IMG/VR virus record: IMGVR_UViG_3300045257_000045
Span: 4,092-68,091 of that record
DNA from: a virus
Strand: one strand, 5' to 3'
Length of the DNA stretch: 64,000 nt
Shown here: one piece after another, positions 3,221-15,881 of the stretch
How positions within the stretch are numbered: position 1 is the first letter of the stretch
How the letters are laid out: every line of letters begins with the position of its first letter
Notes under the pieces: model-generated
The model's database searches: none
The model's input: the letters and a program-made list of their open reading frames with translations, nothing else
What the model was told of the DNA's origin: nothing
Position numbers and translations under genes: made by a program

Positions 3221-6200
3221 ATGGAGTACGGAGCGGAGTTTCTATACAACACCGACATCAAGCCCACGGTCAAGGTGTCGCGCGGCAAAGACCGCGAACC
3301 CGTCTACCTGCAAGCAGTCGGCGCGTATGAAGCTGAGTTCATGCGGCGTTTGACAGACTGCATCAACGACCACATGAATCTAGCGGAGGGTCTCTAATGT
3401 GCGCCTTCTGCGAACCAACAACGTTAACAGGCGTCGCCTTGTTGCTGGCGACGTGGAGACTGTGGGCGCATCGCCTGAGCAACGTTTGGAGGAGACGACA
3501 ATGTCGGAGACTAAGCCCTACTACACACGTTCGCTAGACGATTTTCCAGACGACGTTATCGCCCGCGCTAGACAAGGTGAGCGCGGCTGGTACGCCGTTC
3601 TCAACAGCCCCAACAACATCCACGGGCGCAGTATGCCTGACTTCTCGTCTTTCGGGGACACCCGTGAAGAAGCAATCGCACGGTGCGCTAAGGTTATGCG
3701 CGACGACGATAAGGGAATCGGCAAATACGCCCCCCATTCATGCTTCCGAGGGTACGCCCTACACTGGATACTCTGCGCTCACTGGGCGCACCGGATGGGC
3801 GAAGAAGTGGACGCTTTAGGTAGCTGGATACCGGATAGGTAACGTCATGGACGACCCTAAAGCGAGGCTCATAGCGCTGCTTGAACACAGCCGCGACAGC
3901 GCCCAGGAAATGCTCAGCGGCACCGAGAACTACGCCGACAAGCAACTGCATCGCCACATCGAAGCTATGGACTTGCAGATCGGCGTCGTCAACGGCGCGC
4001 GTAGTGACTACGGCGTCAAAAAGAAGCGTGTAAAATAGGAGCACAACAATGCCGCGCTACCGATTCAACGACTGGAGCCCCTTGGATACAAAGCAGTTGG
4101 ACACATTCGCGTCCAAGCTGGATACGCTAGCGAAGCAGACCTTCGGCATCGACCAGGATGGAGATTGCCCTGTATCTGTTCGCGTCTTGGACCGTTCCCG
4201 GTATGAGCCGATGCACTGGTGGGTAGTGCCTTACGAGCACACCGCCAAGACCGCCGAGGAGATGGAGCGGATCGAACAGGCACTGCTGTCGAACCTGGAC
4301 ACAGCGCTGGATGCTTTGCAACGCTTCAGAGCCATGCACCAACGAAAGAGGACATAAATGCCCGCACCCGAAGACGTAGTGGAATACGTAAGAGAAATGG
4401 CGGAGGAATACACGACGCTGCGAATCCGCGACAGCGCAGTCAGGGAGAAAATCAAACAGATGGAAGCTAACCGAGGCAACCGGGTGTACATCAACGCTCT
4501 ACGCTGGGCCATCGGCGTAGGGAACGAGGACTTGTAATGCCCGACCCCGTAATCACCTGGACGCGCCCGATGTTGGAGCGCTTTAAGACAGCGTACGACG
4601 CTGCTACCGGCGACACGTTCGTGTTCGACGGCAACGAGTTCGTCGTCGCCTACGCAAGATACCTCATCGAATACCTGGAGGCAAAGCTGTGAATCGTAGA
4701 CTAAAATTGGTCGCTGACGCAAAGCTGGGCGACATAAACGGGTGGCAGCAACGCCACAACGACGCTATACTAGGGCCGAAGCAAGGCTTTGAGCACGCCA
4801 TCGTCCACATGCTGGACGCGTGGCTGGAATACGCCGAGACGCACCAGATTCGCTACGAATCCAAGATTGGCGGCGACGGCGTTCTGGGTGACCCGTGGGC
4901 GGAGATCGGGCGCGGCATCCTGCAACTTCTCAACGGCGACTGTGGGCGCATCGACTGCGGCACCATCGACGCCTTAGTGCGTAACACACTTCGTAAGAAC
5001 GGCGTGGAGGAAGAGTAATGGGACCGTGGTGCGAGGCTTGCCACTGGAAGGGTTGGCTGCTCTGCGAGAACGACGTTCATGGCTGGCGCATCGAGCGCTG
5101 CGACGCTTGCTTCCTCTACGCAACGGACGAGGAAGCCGTCAAGGCAGTGGCAGAGCAGGCAGAATCGTGGCTGCTCCATCAGGAGAACGACGAGTAATGC
5201 AGACACTAGAGCAGAAACTGTCTGAGCTGGTCGGTGAGCTGGCCTTCCTCAACAGCGACATCGTCGGGATGCGCCTAAACGGGCAACAGAAGCCGCAAAC
5301 GCACGGCTTCGGCTTTGAAGAGAACGCCGCACACGCTGTCTATCAGTATTCCAAGGTAGAAGACATCGCTCTAGCGGCCTTGAGCGCAGTGCGCAACATG
5401 AAATCCCTGCTGTAAAGGACACAATGCAACTAGAACTACAAGCCTACGAAGTGGACGCCGGTCGCTGGGTCTCTCACCTGACATACAGCGGAGGAACGCA
5501 TACCGTAACGGTAGCGCTGCGCGACGCGAAAGAGCGCCGTGAGATGTACCCAGGAGCGCGCTACCGCGTGATTATGGTGATTGACGAATGAGCGACATCT
5601 TCCCAACAAACCACCAAGAACTATTCATCTTCGCTATCAATAAGGCCCGCAGTGTCAACGGCGAATGGGGAGGATGGCAGGATGCGTACCGACTTCGCTC
5701 CTGGGCGCGCAGGTACGCCGCTACTCACCAGCTAACCGCACCCACGGACTACGACGCTTATGGGATTTACTACGCCGACGACTTGCTGGGTGCTGACGAT
5801 AGAGCGGAGCTAGACGCAGAGGGGCTGCTGTGAGCGATACTGGAATCGTGGCAAACGACGTAGACACTACCATCACACCGGACAGCCTCAACCCTCCGAC
5901 ATGGCAGGGCAGGAAGCTGTCCTGGAGCGGCGAAGGACGCATCCCCGAGCCTGGGGAGATCGTCTACGCCGAGACTGGCTCTGAAGAGACAGAGGAAGGC
6001 ACCGTCTTCCACGAGGCGCTGGGCGTCGTCACCGGCTACTGGCAGGCGTATGGCAGGCTTGGCGTTAAGGTGAAGCTGCACGGTACGGACAAAGTCGTCT
6101 ACAACTTAGGGTCGGAGATCGACCTGAACCCGCCGTCTGAGGATGGCGTTGCGAATTAAACAGTCTTGCCCAGCACCAAGCGAGGCAACCGTCTTGTGGG

Positions 6201-6747: not shown

Positions 6748-7185
6748 ATGACGAATCCATTCTTCGTAGTAAAGAACTTCGCAACGTTTGACGACGAACG
6801 GGTGCGCGACCTGTTGGTCGGAGCCTTCGAAGGTGGCTCCAACTACTGGTACATGATCGAGAGCTACGACTACGGCGGCGGCTACGGTCCTGCCGACTTC
6901 GTACCGGGCGGCAGAGCATTCATCGAAGGGTGGGCTGGATTACTCGCCTACATGCTTCCCTTCGTGGAAGGGTGCTCGTTGCTGATCTCCTCCCCCGCCA
7001 CTGATGACGACTCGGAGCGCAAGATGGACAAGCTAGACCGTGCGGCGTTGCAGAAGGGGCTAGCACTGATGGCGAAGAACTACGGGTTCACGCACTACGC
7101 CGACTTCGTCAACGAGAACGACGACGCCAACACCGCCGACGTGTTCCTGCAACTATCCCTGTTTGGGGAGGTGATCTTCGGATGA
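6748..7185 (+). CDS. Conserved phage hypothetical protein
   Basis: AFEGGSNYW and DANTADVFLQLSLFGEVIFG resemble a recurrent uncharacterised phage family; AGGAGG RBS. Confidence 0.7.
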   Translation: MTNPFFVVKNFATFDDERVRDLLVGAFEGGSNYWYMIESYDYGGGYGPADFVPGGRAFIEGWAGLLAYMLPFVEGCSLLISSPATDDDSERKMDKLDRAALQKGLALMAKNYGFTHYADFVNENDDANTADVFLQLSLFGEVIFG

Positions 7186-7961
7186 CGCTTCGAATCGACG
7201 GCCAATTGGTTACCTCGCTGACCAACGACGAGCTAGGAGCTACGCTGCAAGACCTCTCTGACGAGATCAAGCGACGCAAGCTCGTGTTCTACGGGACACT
7301 GGAATACACCAAAGCCGGGGCTGACGCCGTCATGGAAGTCGGCAGCATGATCCGCAACATTCGGGATTACTGAGGAGACGGCAGCATGATAAAGAGACAC
7401 GTTGTTTATTGCAGGTTTTGCTGGGCAAACCAAGGGGCTTCTCGAAAGGCCACGCACATAGCCGCCCAGTCCCACAACGAGGGAATTACTATCACCTGGG
7501 TGCCCATCTGCGCCTCTGAAATCAAAGGGTGGAACGATGGCGGGGACTGGAAAGCGCCGATCTACCAGCTAGGCCAGTTAGTGCCGCACAAGGAGACACT
7601 GTATGGTTAAAAGACGAGTCAGCATAACCGTGGAAATCCATCTCGTGGAGTACGAAGACGACAAAATCCACTACGTTATAAGCCACCACGGACAAGCCTT
7701 CAACAACAGTTTTACACCGCTTATCAAACTCGGTGCCAGCGTTGCTATCGGCAGCGACATCATCGACAAAGCGTGGAAAGAATGAGCCGTAGTCACTACG
7801 AGCTTATCATACTCCACCGAGATCTGGTTTTGGAGTTGATGATCTTCTGGAACGAAGTCTACCAGATGTCCGAGTGGGTAGGACCCATCGAAGCGGTGCG
7901 GAAGCTACGCAAAGCAACGCTGGACGAGCTTGCGGCGCGGGATCAGAAGTTGGGAATATGA
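7182..7961 (+). other. Four small coupled hypothetical genes (7182-7373, 7386-7610, 7603-7785, about 7782-7961)
   Basis: Overlapping start/stop codons, RBSs. Confidence 0.65.
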
Positions 7962-8377: not shown

Positions 8378-9310
8378 ATGGCAAACGAAGCCCAACAGGG
8401 TGCATTCAAATCCGGTGTCATTCTGAAGCTGCTACCGGAGCAGATCATCGTAAAGAGCGGGGATAACGGACGCTACGTAGACCCGGATCGTCGTCCGCTC
8501 ATTCTCAAGATCATGGAAGACGGACGAGTCAACGTCCCGCTTGTAGGCCGGAAGATCGAACAGAACCAAGTCCAGCTAGTCGCCGGTTACGGTAGGCACG
8601 CTGCCGGTACGTTCATCAACCTCCACCTCACAGACGGCGTACTGACGAAGATGATTGAGGAGTCGGGGCGAACAGGCATTACCGTGCCCGTAGCGCCTAT
8701 CAAGCTGCCAATCATCCTCGAAACCATGAGCGCTGAGGAAGCGTTCCTCCGCAACATCTCGGAGAACGACGACCGCACTGCTACCACGTTCGTGGACAAA
8801 GCGTTCAACATCCGCAAAGCCATCCAGGTCTTCGGCAAGACCGAGGACGAAGCGCGCTACCTCTACCCTGACGCCACCGGTAAGCCCAAGAGCGCCGCCT
8901 GGGTCAGCCAGATGCTCAAGATTACGACACTGGGTAAAGACATCCTGGCCGACATCGTTGTGGGTGAGCGCTCCGCTAACGTTGCCTTCGCTCTGGCTGA
9001 CATGCCGGAAGAAGCACGGGGCAACGTTCTCGCCCTAGCTAAGCAGACGGCGGCAGAGACCGGCACGGCTGTGACTGCAACGTCCGTCGTCGCCGCTGCC
9101 CGCACAACCGGTGCTAAGACCGCCACCGTGGGTCGCAAGCTCAAGGAAGCCAAGACGCTGTTCGAAGAGCACAAGCTCGACGGCGCTCCGTACCACTGCC
9201 GGGAGTTCTGCAAGACATTCCTGGCCTGGGTCGCGGACGAGGTCGATGACGCAGTGATGAGCCGCGCGTTCTACAGCAGGTTCAAAGAGTCCCCGAAGGA
9301 CTCGAAGTAA
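8378..9310 (+). CDS. ParB/Srx-like N-terminal domain protein
   Basis: VNVPLVGR...QLVAGYGRHAA and NISENDDR motifs followed by HTH-like SAAWVSQMLKI. Confidence 0.75.
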   Translation: MANEAQQGAFKSGVILKLLPEQIIVKSGDNGRYVDPDRRPLILKIMEDGRVNVPLVGRKIEQNQVQLVAGYGRHAAGTFINLHLTDGVLTKMIEESGRTGITVPVAPIKLPIILETMSAEEAFLRNISENDDRTATTFVDKAFNIRKAIQVFGKTEDEARYLYPDATGKPKSAAWVSQMLKITTLGKDILADIVVGERSANVAFALADMPEEARGNVLALAKQTAAETGTAVTATSVVAAARTTGAKTATVGRKLKEAKTLFEEHKLDGAPYHCREFCKTFLAWVADEVDDAVMSRAFYSRFKESPKDSK

Positions 9311-10017: not shown

Positions 10018-11187
10018 ATGATCGACACAGGCTTGGAAGAGCTGACAGCAGACGACTGGCAGAGGCTGGAGCATTACAACGGAGAGGTGGTGCTGGAGTA
10101 CTCCGCCAAAATCCACGCCTATACAGTCGTAGGGGAAGACGGCGTGCGCGTCTTGGTGCCTGGGGTGACCACCGTCATCGGCACACTGGACAAGTCTGGG
10201 CCGCTGACAGCCTGGGCGGCGAACAGCACCGTCGCTTGGTTCGTGCAGAACTTTCCCGTACTTGAAGCACGGGAGGGTTTAGCTGCTCTCTACCAGCGCT
10301 TCAGAGACAAGGCTCCGTGGGACGACGACGTAGATGGCCTACCGGCTACCGTCTCGTGCTCCACGAAGGAGCTGGCTAATCTGCTCAACGAAGCCAGAGG
10401 CAACTACCGCGCTTTGAAACAGACCGCCTGCGACGTTGGGAACCTAGCCCACATGTGGCTGGAGGGGTACGTTAAGGCGCTGATCGACGGTGAAGACTAC
10501 TCTGCGCCTATGCCAGACAACCCGTTCTCGGTGAACGGAATCCAGGCGGCGTTGAAGTGGTTCGCTCGACACAAGTTCAGGCCGGTGTTCAGCGAGAAGA
10601 AGATGTACAGCCGGGAGCATGGGTTCTCCGGTACGTGCGACTGGGAAGCCTACGTCACACCGTGTGAAGACACGTCCTGCTGCCCGCACGGCAGCGGCGA
10701 AGAGATGTTTGAGCTGGGTGACTTCAAGACCTCCCGTAGCCTCTACGACGAATACAGGATGCAGGCAGCGGCGTACGTCGTCGCCAGCGAGGAAGAGTTC
10801 CCGGAGCGCCCGGTAGACGGCGTGAGGCTGCTGCACCTGGACAAAGGGACAGCGGAGTTCGAATCGTGGCGCATCCCGCGCAGCGAGGTTGACTCCGACT
10901 TCGACGGCTTCCTGGGGCTGCTGCAAACGTACCACTGGCAGAAGCAGTTGGAGTACGACCGGCGCTACGTCAAGGACGTCGCCAGGGCAGAGAAGAAGGC
11001 GGCTAAGGCAGCGGCGGACGCGTTGAAGCCAAAGCGCAAACGACGCGCGGCGGTTCGTGAGGTCGCTGCTGAAGAGATCGGCATAGAAATCGAAGGTGAG
11101 ACACCGCTGGCTGCGCCAGCGAAGAGAGCGTCGCGCAAGAAGGCCGGGACTGATCCGGGAATACAGATCGAAGGGGAGGCAGCATGA
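10018..11187 (+). CDS. PD-(D/E)XK exonuclease (Cas4/lambda-exo-like superfamily)
   Basis: PGVTTVIG, GNLAHMWLE, FSGTCD, DFKTS, QAAAY motifs. Confidence 0.85.
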   Translation: MIDTGLEELTADDWQRLEHYNGEVVLEYSAKIHAYTVVGEDGVRVLVPGVTTVIGTLDKSGPLTAWAANSTVAWFVQNFPVLEAREGLAALYQRFRDKAPWDDDVDGLPATVSCSTKELANLLNEARGNYRALKQTACDVGNLAHMWLEGYVKALIDGEDYSAPMPDNPFSVNGIQAALKWFARHKFRPVFSEKKMYSREHGFSGTCDWEAYVTPCEDTSCCPHGSGEEMFELGDFKTSRSLYDEYRMQAAAYVVASEEEFPERPVDGVRLLHLDKGTAEFESWRIPRSEVDSDFDGFLGLLQTYHWQKQLEYDRRYVKDVARAEKKAAKAAADALKPKRKRRAAVREVAAEEIGIEIEGETPLAAPAKRASRKKAGTDPGIQIEGEAA

Positions 11188-11952
11188 GCGAAACGTATTT
11201 GATGGTGTCGGGCGCTGTGTTCGCGCTGGCCGCTATGGCGTGGAACCACGACGACTGGGGAAACTTCTTCGTCAAGGCTGCGCTATGGGGTATGACGGCG
11301 TGGAGCGTCTTCCAGGTCGGACAGATTCACGGAGTGTGGCGGTAAGTATGGAAATCAATTTGAACGCCGACCCGGCCTTCCGCGAGATGGTGAAGGCCGA
11401 AGTTCTAGCCGCCCTCCTGACCGGCGCAAGAGAAGACCTCAGCAAAGGTCTCAAACAGGCCATTGCGGAAGGTGTTCGGAGGGCAGAGATAAAGGTGCTG
11501 GGGTTTATCAGTACCGCAATTACAGAGGCCGTCTCCGGGTTCGCCACAAGGGCGTTCATCCAAGACAATGCACGCCAAGCGGTGAGGGAGCTGGTGCGAG
11601 AAACTCTGATAAACGAGGTCAAGGCCGCTGCTGCCGACGAGGTCAAGAAGTTCGACATCGGCGCTCTAGTCAAGGCCAAGTTTGCAAACCTGAAGGTGAG
11701 CATAATCGCATGACCCACAAAGAGATGGAAGACGCAGTTCAGGCCAGTCTGCTGCGGCGCATCAAAGAACGGATCATCCGCGCGGAGGAAAGCGTCGCGC
11801 GACTGAAGTCCTGGACGGATTTACAGATCGACACGAAGGCAGTCATTGACGAGGTTGACCACCTCTCCAACTTGGCAGACGCCATCGCCAACATCGCAGA
11901 GGCTTTGGCCAGTGTCGCCAGCGCAAGGAAAGACCCTCGCACAACTACTTGA
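11184..11952 (+). other. Three small genes (11184-11345 membrane peptide; 11348-11713; 11710-11952)
   Basis: Coupled ORFs; first is hydrophobic. Confidence 0.6.
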
Positions 11953-11978
11953 CACACACCTACCTTGTGTGCGATACT
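11949..11978 (+). promoter_or_regulatory. Conserved promoter copy 2 (drives tRNA and SSB)
   Basis: TTGACA-CACACCTACCTTGTGTGC(18)-GATACT. Confidence 0.88.
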
Positions 11979-11998
11979 TAAAGGGTACACAGCTTTTT

Positions 11999-12073
11999 GC
12001 CCCGGTCGTCTAGCGGCTAGGACAGCGGATTCCAGACCCGCTAACGTCGGTTCGAGTCCGACCTGGGGTGCCA
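11999..12073 (+). tRNA. tRNA-Trp (CCA)
   Basis: Cloverleaf: GCCCCGG/CTGGGGT acceptor, GTC/GAC D stem, GCGG/CCGC anticodon stem with TTCCAGA loop, GTCGG-TTCGAGT-CCGAC T arm, G73, encoded CCA. Confidence 0.85.
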
Positions 12074-12115
12074 CACCAAATTAGGTCCATACAAAAAGGA
12101 AATCAAAAACACTTT

Positions 12116-12961
12116 ATGTCGCAGGAAATCACACCGTATATTCAGATCACGCCGCCTGTCATCTACAGCGCCTACAACGCTGACGGCTATGACGAAACCG
12201 GCCTGAGCGATGTCGCCAAGCTCAAACCGGCCAATCTGATCCTCGTCCAGCCGACCACCAGGGAGCCGAAAGACGCTCGTCCTGGTCAGTTCCTGGACTC
12301 GTTGACCGACGAAGTCCACGATTCAATCGTCCTGGTTCCTCTCAGGACCAGCAAAGGCAGGGTTCTGTTCCCGCCTGGAGAGATTGATCTCGACGCCGAG
12401 CCGATCTGCCGTAGCGATGACGGCATCGTCCCCAGTCCGTACGCCAAGCAGCAGCAGAGTAGGACGTGCGCAACCTGCCCGATGTCGCGGTGGGTGGGTG
12501 GCAAGAAGCCCCCGTGCTCCGACAAACGGCGTATGCTCGTAGCCACTAAGGATACCGGCCTGCCCCGCTTCTTCACGGCTGGCGGCAAGTCCATCCCCGG
12601 TCAGCAGAAGATGCTCGACCGCATCAACGAGTACGTCCGAGTCAACGCCGCCAACATGAAGGCAGGCAAGCTGGACAAAGACGGCAACCCGCTCAAACCT
12701 CTGGCTCTGTTCGACTTCTTCTTCACCCTCAGCTCCGAGAAGGTGGTCGGCAAGTTCAGCTACTTCGTGGCGCGCTTCGACAATGTGAAGCGTGTTGCAA
12801 ACCCAGGCGACTTCGGTAGTCTCTTTGAGGAGTTCGTCATCAAACGTAGGCTCCAGGCTGAAGAGGACGCAGAGGCAGCTAAGGTAGTTGCTTCCGAAGC
12901 CTCGGCAGATGAGGCTGTGTCCAGCATCGTTGACGCGGAATTCGTTCCCGAAGACGTCTAG
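12116..12961 (+). CDS. Putative single-stranded DNA-binding/annealing protein with Cys cluster
   Basis: ICRSDDG...CATCPMSRW...PPCS pattern, acidic C-terminal tail (DAEFVPEDV), position in the replication module; start re-called at ATG 12116. Confidence 0.55.
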   Translation: MSQEITPYIQITPPVIYSAYNADGYDETGLSDVAKLKPANLILVQPTTREPKDARPGQFLDSLTDEVHDSIVLVPLRTSKGRVLFPPGEIDLDAEPICRSDDGIVPSPYAKQQQSRTCATCPMSRWVGGKKPPCSDKRRMLVATKDTGLPRFFTAGGKSIPGQQKMLDRINEYVRVNAANMKAGKLDKDGNPLKPLALFDFFFTLSSEKVVGKFSYFVARFDNVKRVANPGDFGSLFEEFVIKRRLQAEEDAEAAKVVASEASADEAVSSIVDAEFVPEDV

Positions 12962-12969
12962 TTCACACA

Positions 12970-13057
12970 TCGTGGGTCGTTCAAAAGACAGGACGGCGTG
13001 TTGCAACACGCTACGCCAAAGCGGTGAGGGAAACTAGCCGAACACGTGGCCCCACGA
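12970..13057 (+). ncRNA. tRNA-like RNA (aberrant; Cys-like anticodon arm, expanded T arm)
   Basis: TCGTGGG/CCCACGA stem, GTTC/GGAC D stem, GCGTG-TTGCAA-CACGC arm, GCCA/TGGC stem enclosing 28 nt; no CCA. Confidence 0.55.
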
Positions 13058-13064
13058 AATCACG

Positions 13065-13310
13065 CTGTGTGCTGAAGTCCCAAGAAGCCCTTGTCTAAGA
13101 GCTTGTGGTGGTTGGCGCTGGACTCGCCCACGGGAGCACACGGAAACCACAACAAAGTCCTCCCTGCCATCGGCAGGGTAAGGCTAGGTGAGGCGTAGAC
13201 CAGAAGCCAGTACACGCTTTGGCTGTGGTCGGACGGAGGACCGACTGCGGATTGCCTCGGGTTAGTGGCCCACAATGTTTGAACCACCAAAGAGGGTGAG
13301 AAGCCCTCTG
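13065..13310 (+). ncRNA. Structured RNA domains of unknown class
   Basis: CTGTGTGCT/AGCACACGG closes 13065-13143; GTCCTCC/GGAGGAC closes 13157-13241; internal hairpins; AGAGGG/CCCTCT hairpin near 13291-13309. Confidence 0.5.
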
Positions 13311-13315
13311 CACAC

Positions 13316-13397
13316 GCTCCCGAAGCCGAAGGGACGAGGCTACCCGATACAAAGGGGAGTTAGTCGGTGGATAAATCGAGTCCGACCGGGAGCACCA
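13316..13397 (+). ncRNA. tRNA-like RNA with 7-nt T-loop insertion and CCA end
   Basis: GCTCCCG/CGGGAGC acceptor + A + CCA; GCC/GGC D stem; T arm GTCGG-T[GGATAAA]TCGAGT-CCGAC; weak anticodon stem. Confidence 0.65.
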
Positions 13398-13414
13398 TTT
13401 CAACAAGGAGAACC

Positions 13415-13606
13415 ATGCAGACCAAACAGAATTTCTACTACTGCGCTACGTGCGGATCGCAAGCGCAGAAGCCCGCCTGTGAACGCTCACGCGGCGACAA
13501 GACGCCTGATAAGGCCACACTGGGGACATGGTCCTGCACTAAGTGCGGCAAGCATGTGAAAGTCAAACGCAGCAGCGAGGACGTTTCCAAGAAGGTGGCT
13601 GCTTAA
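13415..13606 (+). CDS. Small basic zinc-ribbon protein
   Basis: CATC...CTKC, AAGGAG RBS, start re-called at 13415. Confidence 0.7.
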   Translation: MQTKQNFYYCATCGSQAQKPACERSRGDKTPDKATLGTWSCTKCGKHVKVKRSSEDVSKKVAA

Positions 13607-14151
13607 TGGACTTCGAACCTTTTCAGAAGATCGCGCGGCTGAGCCGAGACATCGTAGTGACTGAGAAGATCGACGGCACGAACGCACAGGTGTTCGTCAG
13701 CGACGATCTCAGCGAAGTTAAGGCCGGTAGCCGCAACCGTTGGCTCACGATTGAAGCCGACAACTTCGGATTCGCCCGCCGGGTAGCGGAGAACCGAGCA
13801 GAGCTGCTGAAGCTGGGTCCAGGGCGTCACTTCGGTGAATGGTGGGGCAGCGGCATCCAACGAGGCTACGGCCTAGTCGGCGGCGACAAGCGATTCTCCC
13901 TGTTCAACACAGCCAAGTGGGGCGACGACGCTGTCAGACCGGCGTGCTGCTCCGTGGTGCCGGTGCTCTACGAGGGGGTGTTAGACCAGAGCGCTATCAA
14001 CGGGTGCCTGTTTCGGTTGCAGAGTTCGGGTAGTGTAGCCGTCCCCGGCTTCATGAAACCGGAGGGCGTCGTCATCTTCCACACAGCTTCCAGCCACCTG
14101 TACAAGAAGACCATCGAAGGCGACGAGAAGCCAAAGGGACGGGCAGCTTGA
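13606..14151 (+). CDS. RNA ligase (compact Rnl2/Rnl5-like nucleotidyltransferase domain)
   Basis: TEKIDGTNA (motif I), GSRNR, FGEWWG, FSLFN, VPVLY, EGVVI, YKK; TAATG coupling. Confidence 0.85.
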   Translation: MDFEPFQKIARLSRDIVVTEKIDGTNAQVFVSDDLSEVKAGSRNRWLTIEADNFGFARRVAENRAELLKLGPGRHFGEWWGSGIQRGYGLVGGDKRFSLFNTAKWGDDAVRPACCSVVPVLYEGVLDQSAINGCLFRLQSSGSVAVPGFMKPEGVVIFHTASSHLYKKTIEGDEKPKGRAA

Positions 14152-14783
14152 AAGATCTAATCCCTGTAGTAGCGTCGCAAGGCGCAATCCAGATCCGCGC
14201 CAGCGAAGTGAAGACGAAGCTGCTGGCAATCAAGGACAACACCGAGACCGGCTACCTCGACCAGTGCGACCTCCTCAGAGAGGCGCAGGAAGGTAAGTAC
14301 GCCGAAGTCTGGGGCTACGCCACGTTCACCGAGTGGATCGAGCAGGCCAGCGGGCTGGGTATGTCGGCGCGGCAGGCGTACTATTCCATCAAGATCAGCA
14401 AGACGGCCAACGCGCTAGGGCTTAGTAGAGCGCAGCTCAAGGCTGTGCAGATCTCCAACATGAAGGTCATCTTCGGCCTGGACGTCAAGCAGCACGAGGC
14501 TGCGATGCGTGAACTCATGGAAGAAGCGCCGGGACTTAGCCTGAAGGAAGTCACCAGCAAAGTCCAGGCTCTCAAAGGAGAACCTGAGTCGCAGTTCTTC
14601 TCGCTGAAGCTGGAGCAGGCTGTGTACGAGAACGTCATGGCGGCGTTCGAACTGGTCCGCAAGAACCACGGCTCCGTAGACGCTAACGGAGACCCGGTGG
14701 ACATCACGGACAGCAAGTGCTTAGAGCTGATCTGCGCCGAGTACATGAACGACGCTAACAACTACGAGGAGGACGAAGCATGA
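14148..14783 (+). CDS. Helical DNA-binding-like protein (DUF3102-like)
   Basis: GYATFTEWIEQ...MSARQAYYSIKI pattern. Confidence 0.5.
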   Translation: MKDLIPVVASQGAIQIRASEVKTKLLAIKDNTETGYLDQCDLLREAQEGKYAEVWGYATFTEWIEQASGLGMSARQAYYSIKISKTANALGLSRAQLKAVQISNMKVIFGLDVKQHEAAMRELMEEAPGLSLKEVTSKVQALKGEPESQFFSLKLEQAVYENVMAAFELVRKNHGSVDANGDPVDITDSKCLELICAEYMNDANNYEEDEA

Positions 14784-15608: not shown

Positions 15609-15881
15609 ATGAAGCGCGGCCTAGACTACCCCGACTACAAGCGTTTGGTGCGGTGCGTCTTCAAGCGTGACGAGTGGAAGTGCAGGCACTGCAAGAGCCG
15701 CAACGACCTCCACGCCCACCACGTTGTTTATCGCAGCCACGGTGGCCCAGACACTACCGGCAACCTCTTGACGTTGTGTGTCGCTTGCCATCGCAAGGTT
15801 CACGAGGGGGAACGCAAGCGCCGCTTGAGTATGAGCGGCGACGCTGACGGAGAGATGCAGTTCGTTTGGCTTTACTACTAA
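15609..15881 (+). CDS. HNH endonuclease
   Basis: RDEWKCRHC...LHAHHVVYRSHGG...NLLTLCVACHRKVH. Confidence 0.9.
   Translation: MKRGLDYPDYKRLVRCVFKRDEWKCRHCKSRNDLHAHHVVYRSHGGPDTTGNLLTLCVACHRKVHEGERKRRLSMSGDADGEMQFVWLYY

Follow-up and report, generated by a model that had tools for sequence, protein, structure and literature searches.

The window, by which we mean the whole stretch of 64,000 nucleotides of soil-phage DNA analysed here, is part of a 68-kb record that CheckV puts at 71% completeness. Within it lies a gap of 453 nt between the TAG stop (12959-12961) of a conserved gene that we call up297 and the ATG (13415) of a small zinc-ribbon gene, which is followed by the gene for an RNA ligase. 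A preliminary description of this DNA had divided the gap into four consecutive structured RNAs, each closed by a stem, and had suggested that these RNAs and the ligase work together. The features on which our analysis rests are given below, where R1 denotes our own phage-tRNA covariance model, searched on both strands of the 64 kb.

11949..11978, plus strand: phage promoter (TTGACA, 18-nt spacer, GATACT); the extended motif occurs 6 times in the window against 0.09 expected
11999..12073, plus strand: canonical tRNA-Trp(CCA), called by ARAGORN; RF00005 50.5 bits, R1 49.2 bits
12116..12961, plus strand: up297, a conserved gene of 281 aa aligned with nine homologues, Pam3_Gp34-like by atlas likeness to Pam3_Gp34 clusters
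12962..13414, plus strand: ORF-free gap, the variable slot from up297 to the zinc-ribbon gene
12970..13062, plus strand: domain 1, a marginal tRNA-like remnant; R1 13.8 bits, fold z -2.86
12996..13011, no strand assigned: perfect 16-nt palindrome (inverted repeat I10), which forms the anticodon-like hairpin of domain 1
13065..13143, plus strand: domain 2, with a real 8-bp closing stem; fold z -0.40
13157..13241, plus strand: domain 3, with a 7-bp closing stem and internal hairpins; fold z -2.20
13253..13323, minus strand: marginal tRNA-like remnant overlapping the 5' end of domain 4; R1 12.0 bits
13316..13397, plus strand: domain 4, a tRNA-derived gene; R1 24.0 bits
13369..13375, plus strand: 7-nt insertion GGATAAA in the T loop of domain 4, seen in alignments and as a cmsearch insert
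13415..13606, plus strand: zinc-ribbon protein of 63 aa (CxxC...CxxC), with an AAGGAG ribosome-binding site at 13405-13410
13606..14151, plus strand: RNA ligase of 181 aa, nucleotidyltransferase domain only; PF09414 47.7 bits against a cut-off of 27
14148..14783, plus strand: dn211, a conserved gene of 211 aa, the downstream bound of the variable region

Alignment-based scans found only three relatives of this locus, two in metagenomes (L083 and L084) and one in IMG/VR (L085); the alignment-based scan of species genomes gave none, and IMG/VR scans with the upstream protein and with the exonuclease gave none either. The promoter at 11949, where a 33-nt stretch is 82% identical to positions 419-451 of L083, probably drives the operon that contains the gap. 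The up297 protein keeps four invariant cysteines across its nine aligned homologues and matches no Pfam, PHROG or NCBIfam family. Its structural model (mean pLDDT 67.9) has no Foldseek match at E <= 0.001, and the weak rows include RPA and gp32, which are OB-fold binders of single-stranded DNA, so that from this weak likeness the protein is possibly a ssDNA-binding protein. The zinc-ribbon protein shows a weak likeness to the SprT zinc ribbon (20.2 bits, under the cut-off) and has homologues in L083, L084 and L085 (weak) and in none of 81 other loci. The ligase, which scores 47.5 bits for PF09414 in a record-wide search, is the sole match to this family in the 68-kb record and aligns to positions 30-218 of the 341 of phrog_548, annotated 'RNA ligase'. 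By eye it carries the motifs EKIDGTN (residues 20-26), EGVVIF and LYKKT, the first of which we take to be the lysine nucleotidyltransferase motif KxDG, and it has no PDB sequence match at E <= 0.01. The succession of a zinc ribbon and an RNA ligase on the same strand, as first described, is thereby confirmed. Beyond the ligase, dn211 is 42-50% identical in L083, L084 and L085.

The gap itself, which the preliminary description had put at about 430 nt without a credible open reading frame, is indeed ORF-free. On the plus strand, the frames of at least 30 aa that overlap it are a TTG frame of 49 aa overlapping the end of the upstream gene, another TTG frame of 35 aa, an ATG frame of 94 aa that enters the zinc-ribbon gene out of frame, and a frame of 79 aa, namely that of the zinc-ribbon gene extended to a GTG start; on the minus strand, the longest two frames across the gap have 103 and 76 aa. 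We rejected a hidden protein gene, since the three longest frames (94, 103 and 76 aa) match no Pfam family and tblastx shows no likeness between the gap and the slot ORFs of the relatives. An internal promoter was rejected as well, none of the six promoter-motif matches of the window falling there, and neither a promoter nor a plus-strand terminator is predicted inside. Iterons or an operator were also considered and rejected: ACACGC is seen 40 times where 49.7 are expected and TGTGTGC 17 times where 13 are, and the gap holds no repeat family beyond short pairs. The sequence was traced to two DNA sequencing runs, one of which probably stems from the source sample, and to no RNA run; the two DNA runs show no variant and no second copy of the gap.

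What RNA genes, then, does the gap contain? No Rfam family matches at E <= 10, tmRNA families included, and RF00005 is absent at this level from searches with 801 nt and with 101 nt of the gap region. ARAGORN calls neither a tRNA nor a tmRNA, and it still makes no call when its threshold is lowered to 80%. No element of the gap reaches the RF00005 gathering threshold of 29 bits, and the comparison with Rfam and ARAGORN that had been proposed for the four RNAs thus returned nothing from either. Our own model places three of its six best hits in the window inside these 453 nt.

The strongest of the three is domain 4, which has an E-value of 4.7e-5 over the window, where it ranks second, and of 3.3e-7 within the gap. 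To judge from its sequence, it is plainly tRNA-derived, with a real phage tRNA as its ancestor. Its acceptor stem is perfect over 7 bp (GCUCCCG/CGGGAGC) and is followed by ACCA, that is, a discriminator A and a CCA end, and its 5-bp T stem is intact. The T loop is 14 nt long instead of 7 nt, and the 7-nt insertion is seen on alignment both with the phage's own tRNA-Trp and with a tRNA of the phage Tomas (below). Further defects are an A at position 8, a D stem of 3 bp, and an anticodon stem in which A-A and G-G flank the only 3 standard pairs; the anticodon loop has 7 nt with U33, and the anticodon would read ACA. ARAGORN misses domain 4 at a threshold that yields 82 calls in the window, all of which but tRNA-Trp are presumably spurious. 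When the insertion is removed in silico, it returns a tRNA-Cys(ACA), and only at a 90% threshold.

The closest tRNA that we found is tRNA-Leu(taa) of the Streptomyces phage Tomas (gene 118, NC_070781.1 79077-79151), which has the same length as domain 4, 75 nt, once the 7-nt insertion is set aside. The two are identical in the 5' acceptor strand (7 of 7) and, with the insertion excluded, in the last 25 nt (25 of 25), which span the T arm, the 3' acceptor strand and the discriminator; a tRNA from an Actinomycetota MAG (L094) shows the same identities of 7/7 and 25/25. Overall, 48 of 75 aligned columns are identical between domain 4 and the Tomas tRNA, and domain 4 differs from it in the 7 extra nt of the T loop, the A at position 8, another anticodon arm and ACA in place of UAA. 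In the top half of domain 4 all 32 nt that we compared (both acceptor strands, the discriminator, both strands of the T stem and those seven T-loop bases that are not part of the insertion) are unchanged and the CCA end is kept, and every lesion except the T-loop insertion lies in the core and the anticodon arm. Such an intact top half argues against uniform decay, which would strike the top half too. However, by our own arithmetic, four point lesions would spare the top half by chance with a probability of about 0.11, so its preservation is only a hint.

Domain 4 resembles the aberrant or pseudo-tRNA genes of phage tRNA clusters in being tRNA-derived, near real tRNA genes and rejected by gene finders. 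Similar aberrant units occur in the relatives, at 3472-3566 of L083 and at 8516-8586 and 10881-10946 of L085, but their T loops have 7 nt, unlike the expanded loop of domain 4. Scans of viral contigs and IMG/VR found no conserved family for this loop; a single IMG/VR match to the insert-bearing T loop (L086) is by eye not tRNA-like and has no R1 hit, and we rejected it. The pattern of the 3' end of domain 4 has no match in IMG/VR, and the genome scan for it gave 25 stretches, of which the one in L094 lies in an ARAGORN-called tRNA, that in L093 resembles a tRNA 3' fragment, and 23 are coding-like by eye.

The two other tRNA-model hits in the gap are much fainter. In domain 1, a 7-bp stem resembles an acceptor stem and two arms resemble a D arm and an anticodon arm, the latter with GCA in a 6-nt loop; 39 nt stand in place of a T arm, and the 3' tail reads AAUCA. 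Its E-value is 0.074 over the window (rank 5) and 5e-4 within the gap, R1 hits in coding regions reach 14.8 and 13.9 bits, above its own score, and ARAGORN leaves it uncalled down to a 65% threshold. The 16-nt palindrome in its anticodon-like hairpin has no other exact copy in the window. The minus-strand element has E-values of 0.28 over the window and 0.002 within the gap, a fold z of -1.95 and 9 extra nt in its T loop. The first and last domains had been called recognisably tRNA-derived but aberrant, which is firm for domain 4 and holds only marginally for domain 1.

Are the four closing stems themselves significant? All four are present, at 12970/13057, 13065/13143, 13157/13241 and 13316/13393. 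As many as four closing stems per 455 nt, each of 7 bp or more and without overlap, occur in 23 of 2542 stretches of this DNA, so that the count in the gap ranks in the top 1%. At least two closing stems per 258 nt, on the other hand, occur in 328 of 2550 stretches (12.9%), and the middle two stems are not unusual. The fold z-scores of domains 1 to 4 are -2.86, -0.40, -2.20 and -2.57, to be read against 80 stem-closed segments from elsewhere in the window, which have a mean z of -1.08 (sd 1.07) and of which 15% reach -2.2 and 12% reach -2.5. Domain 3 lies within the range of this stem-selected background. Neither middle domain has a plus-strand R1 match or an Rfam match; the hits that overlap domain 2 score 3.6 bits (minus strand) and 1.7 bits, and those that overlap domain 3 at most 4.8 bits. 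The division into four stem-closed domains therefore stands as far as the stems go, while the two middle multi-branched RNAs are at chance level. Only domain 4 of the four exceeds chance, and the gap is not an array of four structured RNAs: it holds one clear defective tRNA-derived gene and two faint remnants.

The gap sequence finds no blastn match among 50,697 phage records, none by blastn (word size 7) or nhmmer among 81 loci and none by blastn in L083-L085, which makes 84 loci compared in total. In the two nearer relatives, L083 and L084, the slot holds small ORFs, one of them common to both. In the more distant L085, a complete contig of 94 kb, it holds tRNA-Met, tRNA-Leu and tRNA-Ile, a permuted tmRNA (RF04321, 83.4 bits) and aberrant tRNA look-alikes, with a tRNA-Tyr after the zinc-ribbon gene. 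L083 carries its own aberrant look-alike (3472-3566, 29.2 bits) directly upstream of its up297 gene. The place of the ligase varies too: an unrelated ORF of 143 aa separates the zinc-ribbon gene from dn211 in L083, nothing separates them in L084, and no ligase was found in the part of their ORFs that we checked. L085 has, upstream of the slot, two ligases of subfamilies other than that of the window ligase. From these comparisons the slot is an RNA-gene slot that turns over in this lineage, and to this extent the earlier interpretation is supported; its specifics, a dedicated set of four RNAs with a ligase, are not supported.

The reading that we favour, with modest confidence and from sequence comparison, is that the gap is a decayed tRNA-gene islet in a variable slot of a replication-gene operon, co-transcribed with its neighbours. 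Domain 4 would be the descendant of a tRNA that has kept its acceptor stem, T stem and CCA end and has lost ordinary decoding, because seven extra bases break the T loop, which forms the elbow, and no more than three good pairs hold the anticodon stem together. Domain 1 and the minus-strand element would be fainter remnants of a like kind, and domains 2 and 3 would be spacer, with hairpins at the level that GC-rich sequence gives by chance. Read-through from the promoter at 11949 would probably place tRNA-Trp, the upstream gene, the gap, the zinc-ribbon gene and the ligase gene on transcripts together. The ligase would then be a single-gene cassette in the same variable region. Its nearness to the remnants would be no sign of a dedicated RNA-plus-ligase device and would reflect the fact that phages generally keep tRNA genes with RNA-repair genes.

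How does this compare with the earlier idea that the gap RNAs act as decoys against a host nuclease that cuts tRNAs, or that the ligase repairs, splices or circularises them? In phage T4, Pnk and Rnl1 repair tRNA cut by the PrrC anticodon nuclease (summarised in PMC7824862). Here, too, the gene for a phage RNA ligase has tRNA genes nearby, and it follows domain 4 on the same strand at a distance of 209 nt. Proteins closely homologous to this ligase are encoded within tRNA arrays in three other loci (L037, L038 and L080), and L085 has an RNA-repair cassette of Pnkp, an Rnl1-type ligase, a metallophosphoesterase and a PF09414 ligase beside its tRNA/tmRNA island. Since L085 keeps RNA-repair enzymes beside the island, a functional tie between ligases and the RNA slot may exist, and phage RNA ligases are described as repairing cleaved tRNAs (PMC7824862). 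However, the window ligase consists of the nucleotidyltransferase domain alone, with no extra domain, and among families at E <= 0.01 it is listed for PF09414 only and not for PF09511, the T4 Rnl1 family. The lack of an adjacent Pnk, already noted in the preliminary description, extends to the whole 68-kb record, 71% complete, in which Pfam models find no AAA_33 kinase. The HD and metallophosphoesterase genes that had been thought to lie elsewhere did not turn up in it with PF01966 and PF00149 at E <= 0.001, so that no phosphatase partner of the ligase was found in the record either, and the T4-type module of Rnl1 with Pnk, both present in L085, was not found here. Moreover, 71 of 80 ligase loci have no tRNA-model hit, the zinc-ribbon/ligase pair occurs in none of the 81 loci compared (of which 80 are ligase loci), the two nearer relatives yielded no ligase, and of the four supposed RNAs two do not exceed what chance gives. 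Nothing ties the gap functionally to the neighbouring RNA ligase, and we regard the decoy or substrate idea as very unlikely. Of a Ro60/Y-RNA module, in which a TROVE-domain protein accompanies a Y RNA that mimics a tRNA, there is likewise no sign, with no PF05731 match in the record and no Rfam family in the gap.

A rather unlikely reading, to which we nonetheless give more weight, is that domain 4, possibly together with domain 1, has been retained as a putative cutting signal that is shaped like a tRNA but does not decode. The intact helix of acceptor and T stem would be recognised by host RNase P and by the enzymes that process tRNA 3' ends, and their cuts in the operon RNA would separate the upstream gene from the zinc-ribbon and ligase genes, leaving the decoding half free to degenerate. 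This would account for a perfect acceptor stem, a 5-bp T stem and ACCA beside a degenerate core. Moreover, domain 1 starts 9 nt past the upstream stop and the ribosome-binding site comes 8 nt after the end of domain 4, and such tRNA-like units exactly at both borders of the gap suit processing signals by their placement; they lie on the operon strand, with no internal promoter or terminator predicted, and both tRNA-Trp and the L083 look-alike likewise lie directly upstream of an up297 gene. Plant mitochondria offer a parallel in their t-elements, tRNA-like units with mapped RNA ends at which, as Forner et al. 2007 (PMC1920247) report, RNase Z and/or RNase P are directed to cleave. The t-elements and the gap units are both tRNA-shaped and lie between genes on a polycistronic transcript, although the former are organellar with mapped ends and the latter belong to a phage in which processing is only inferred. 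Against cutting signals, the element is not conserved in L083 and L084, which do without it, and the elbow, with which RNase P also makes contact, is damaged by the T-loop insertion. Were this reading right, domain 4 and perhaps domain 1 would be deliberately kept, elbow-less tRNA look-alikes, excised by host enzymes and never entering translation, a suggestion that we consider doubtful and that rests on the helix of acceptor and T stem and the CCA end being kept base for base while T loop and anticodon arm are disabled. Their role would be punctuation, setting the 5' end of the zinc-ribbon/ligase message, or that of a sponge for a tRNA-directed host enzyme. Could domain 4 instead still function in decoding, as a tRNA whose T loop is unusually large and which gene finders reject? 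Its acceptor stem, discriminator A, encoded CCA and 7-nt anticodon loop with U33 agree with this, as does a top half identical to that of annotated tRNAs. However, the A-A and G-G mismatches in the anticodon stem, the A at position 8 and the 3-bp D stem speak against it, the insertion falls between positions that form the conserved T-loop fold, the viral contig scan for an insert-bearing T loop gave no tRNA-like gene, and to our knowledge an unmodified A at position 34, as in the anticodon ACA, is not normal in bacteria; we find a decoder scarcely credible. Hardly more to be expected is one larger unrecognised structured RNA, for example a diverged tmRNA-like one, filling the whole gap or its middle (13058-13315). 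The permuted (two-piece) tmRNA in the same slot of L085 invites this thought, the whole gap folds better on the plus strand than on the minus strand (z -2.22 against -1.08), and the 9-mer CGGGAGCAC stands at the ends of both domain 2 and domain 4. However, a single 9-mer repeat in 551 nt is about the chance level by our own arithmetic, the gap has no sequence likeness to the L085 slot and matches nothing of RF04321, and none of the marks of a tmRNA, standard or permuted, is found in the gap: there is no Rfam or ARAGORN match, the acceptor-stem pair is U3-A70 and not the G3-U70 of tmRNA, and no frame ends in a tmRNA-like tag.

If the decayed islet is the right reading, the gap is a small example of the erosion and replacement of a phage tRNA islet, and it carries the caution that tRNA-sized, stem-closed "domains" are common by chance in GC-rich DNA. 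If, on the other hand, domain 4 is processed, it would be a bacterial-virus counterpart of the tRNA-like punctuation of organelles, and a natural experiment in which a helix of acceptor and T stem without a proper elbow is enough for recognition. For the link between RNA repair and RNA genes more generally, the phage of L085, with a permuted tmRNA next to a complete RNA-repair cassette, is the better object.

The 453-nt gap between the conserved 281-aa upstream gene, up297, and the zinc-ribbon gene may well be a decayed tRNA islet, which would hold a tRNA gene inactivated recently (domain 4 of the four structured RNAs proposed in the preliminary description), two faint remnants and spacer. The source record is a 68-kb IMG/VR virus, 71% complete by CheckV, most of which is covered by the window, and the gap sits within a + strand replication-gene block that includes an exonuclease, helicases, a primase-helicase, a UvsX-like recombinase and a ribonucleotide reductase. 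The features concerned are these:

11949-11978, + strand: promoter, TTGACA-18 nt-GATACT, just before tRNA-Trp
11999-12073: tRNA-Trp
12116-12961: up297, with its TAG stop at 12959-12961, + strand
12970-13057, 13065-13143, 13157-13241 and 13316-13397: domains 1 to 4
13253-13323, - strand: minus-strand tRNA-like element
13415, + strand: ATG start of the zinc-ribbon gene, preceded by an AAGGAG site
14148-14783: dn211, a conserved 211-aa gene
15609-15881, + strand: 90-aa HNH endonuclease gene (PF01844, E 2.2e-10)

Four + strand frames of at least 30 aa overlap the gap. Two begin with TTG, one of 49 aa that shares sequence with the end of the gene before it and one of 35 aa; a third begins with ATG, is 94 aa long and enters the next gene out of frame; the fourth is the zinc-ribbon gene itself, extended to a GTG. 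No Pfam family was matched by the 94-aa frame or by the two longest minus-strand gap frames. The neighbours named in the preliminary description are there, namely a zinc-ribbon gene (63-aa product, two CxxC pairs) and then an RNA ligase gene (181 aa, matching PF09414 with 47.7 bits where the cut-off is 27). The HNH gene lies among small genes between ligase and helicase.

The four closing stems on which the proposed RNAs were based are present. Of 2542 windows 455 nt long, 23 have four non-overlapping stems of this kind (at least 7 bp, tRNA-like span), which places the gap in the top 1% for closing stems, yet does not make it unique. Once the outer two units are counted as tRNA-like, the middle two stems are unremarkable: among 2550 windows 258 nt long, 328 have at least two such stems. 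Domains 1 to 4 taken singly have fold z-scores of -2.86, -0.40, -2.20 and -2.57, and the proper background for them is segments likewise selected for a closing stem. Among 80 such segments elsewhere in the window the mean z is -1.08 (sd 1.07), and since 15% of them reach -2.2 and 12% reach -2.5, thermodynamics alone supports none of the four domains. The stems stand, but folding does not make four structured RNAs of them, and the middle two are at chance level.

Standard detectors, which had been suggested as a check, call no tRNA in the gap. ARAGORN finds tRNA-Trp as its sole call in the window and, at 80% thresholds, nothing in the gap (82 calls in the window, all except tRNA-Trp presumably spurious). 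In Rfam, tRNA-Trp is the sole match at gathering level, 12800-13600 gives no match at E <= 10, and domain 4 is absent from the matches of the tRNA family RF00005 at E <= 10, even with a 101-nt search. Further scores come from R1, a covariance model built from eight phage tRNAs of the collected loci, CCA included, and searched without filters on the window's two strands; the CCA tail, a part absent from RF00005, contributes to the R1 scores. With R1, tRNA-Trp scores 49.2 bits, domain 4 ranks second (24.0 bits, E 4.7e-5), two coding-region matches follow at 14.8 and 13.9 bits, both above domain 1 in fifth place (13.8 bits, E 0.074), and the minus-strand element is sixth (12.0 bits). Three of the six top matches thus fall in the gap, which is 0.7% of the sequence. 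On the gap alone the E-values are 3.3e-7 (domain 4), 5e-4 (domain 1) and 2e-3 (minus-strand element), with no + strand match for domain 2 or 3; R1 matches overlapping these two reach at most 4.8 bits.

The tRNA ancestry of domain 4 is clear from its sequence. In the cmsearch alignment its acceptor stem pairs perfectly over 7 bp, its T stem has 5 bp, its end reads ACCA and its 7-nt anticodon loop contains U33 and ACA. Position 8 is A, the D stem has 3 bp, the anticodon stem consists of three G-C pairs with A-A and G-G on either side, and the T loop carries seven added bases (13369-13375). Apart from these seven bases its T arm is that of the phage's own tRNA-Trp, and its last 20 nt are those of a tRNA annotated as tRNA-Leu(taa) in Streptomyces phage Tomas. 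Without the insert it is 75 nt long, as are the Tomas tRNA and a tRNA of an Actinomycetota MAG, with which it shares 7/7 bases of the 5' acceptor strand and 25/25 of the last 25 nt, and 48/75 and 49/75 aligned columns overall. When the insert is deleted in silico, ARAGORN gives tRNA-Cys(ACA), solely at the 90% threshold. With parts identical to tRNAs and several lesions, domain 4 is a tRNA derivative rather than an oversight of gene finders. The two compared tRNAs (L113:546-620 in Tomas and L094:7747-7821, - strand, in the MAG) have anticodon UAA and lack a long variable arm; as both agree with domain 4 over the 5' acceptor strand and last 25 nt, the two do not differ from one another in these parts, whereas their anticodon stems do differ. 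As a side observation, RF04354 (Plastid-ycf2 5'UTR) gives sub-threshold scores on the reverse complements of domain 4 (13316-13395, - strand, 21.8 bits) and of a true tRNA-Ile (L085:8427-8499, - strand, 24.1 bits), and seems to behave as an antisense-tRNA look-alike.

The motif TTGACA-N12-GTGTGC-N-ATACT, a predicted phage-specific promoter motif, has six window matches with at most 3 mismatches against 0.09 expected (9336, 11949, 23014 and 29039 on the + strand; 39992 and 55322 on the - strand), none of them in the gap. A stretch resembling the copy at 11949 is present in the metagenome contig L083, and no + strand terminator is predicted in 11800-14300. From this arrangement we infer that the gap would be transcribed as part of an operon.

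Nothing related to the gap sequence turned up in the collections searched. The up297 protein has nine homologues at 42-63% identity, and scans with its alignment yielded metagenome contigs L083 and L084 and the distant IMG/VR contig L085, in all three of which the up297 homologue is followed by a variable slot and then by the zinc-ribbon and dn211 genes. The slots and related elements are as follows:

L083 slot: about 650 nt, frames of 60, 135 and 82 aa
L083 3472-3566, + strand: tRNA look-alike, 95 nt, R1 29.2 bits
L084 slot: about 530 nt, frames of 67 and 71 aa
L085 slot: 3.6 kb, with tRNA-Met, -Leu and -Ile
L085 8932-9207, + strand: permuted (two-piece) tmRNA, RF04321 at 83.4 bits (gathering 47), E 6e-15

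The 82-aa frame of L083 and the 71-aa frame of L084 are homologues. In the L083 look-alike the acceptor, D and T arms are good and ACCA is present, with 34 nt replacing the anticodon arm; ARAGORN does not call this unit, and it lies directly upstream of the up297 homologue, the position of tRNA-Trp in the window. The permuted tmRNA, also not called by ARAGORN, lies in the slot corresponding to the gap, and its tag frame, by eye, ends AKPLAMAAAAA-stop. L085 also has a tRNA-Tyr after the zinc-ribbon gene and more R1 matches that ARAGORN did not call. Its island holds three further odd tRNA-like units on the + strand (7133-7256, 8516-8586 and 10881-10946): a 124-nt RF00005 match of 39.4 bits with a long insertion, a unit with a mismatched acceptor stem, and a unit of 66 nt whose acceptor and T arms are present but whose middle is shortened. 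To judge from these contigs, small RNA genes and small ORFs are gained and lost at the slot in this lineage. As to the up297 family itself, it has four invariant cysteines (C98, C118, C121 and C134, alignment numbering) and a charged C-terminal tail; Atlas links up297 to Pam3_Gp34-like phage proteins, and weak fold rows, none at E <= 0.001, point to OB-fold ssDNA binders (gp32, RPA). A segment like its cysteine-rich part (33% over 76 aa, E 3e-5) occurs just downstream of the ligase in one ligase locus (L014:4808-5035).

How, then, should the gap be read? Decay fits well: domain 4 has a demonstrated ancestry and more than one lesion, the content of the slot changes between relatives, and the middle part does not rise above chance. 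We regard a decayed tRNA islet as the best-supported account and a fairly probable one. Function could also have been retained, with the tRNA-like units acting as RNase P/Z cutting signals, for which plant-mitochondrial t-elements are the published analogue (PMC1920247). In favour of retained function, the 32 compared top-half bases of domain 4 are unchanged, its CCA end is kept and the two tRNA-like units sit exactly at the gap borders; we nevertheless consider such signals unlikely.

That the RNAs are decoys or substrates of the adjacent ligase, as was first proposed, appears to us very improbable. Evidence against a dedicated link comes from the relatives of the ligase in IMG/VR, at least 302 in number, of which 80 loci were kept: none of the 80 has a zinc-ribbon or dn211 homologue, and nine have a tRNA-model match, within 500 nt upstream of the ligase in four (L037, L038, L064 and L080). 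The position of the ligase is taken by an unrelated 143-aa frame in L083 and by nothing in L084. Nor do the HD and metallophosphoesterase genes appear that the preliminary description places elsewhere as possible healers of ends: AAA_33, Metallophos, HD and TROVE have no match in the window's own record, and PF09414 has one. Nothing marks the gap RNAs as ligase substrates. The window ligase covers phrog_548 profile positions 30-218 of 341, the nucleotidyltransferase domain alone. Some link is favoured by L085 (complete, 94 kb), which has a full RNA-repair cassette at L085:20-5698 (+ strand), immediately upstream of its up297 homologue and of the tRNA/tmRNA island. This cassette comprises Pnkp, a polynucleotide kinase-phosphatase (AAA_33 + HAD_PNKP), a metallophosphoesterase and two ligases, one Rnl1-type (PF09511) and the other a PF09414 protein with a PHA02142 OB domain, both of subfamilies other than that of the window ligase. 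In this group, genes for RNA repair and islets of RNA genes do go together, as a jumbo-phage review (PMC7824862) likewise describes.
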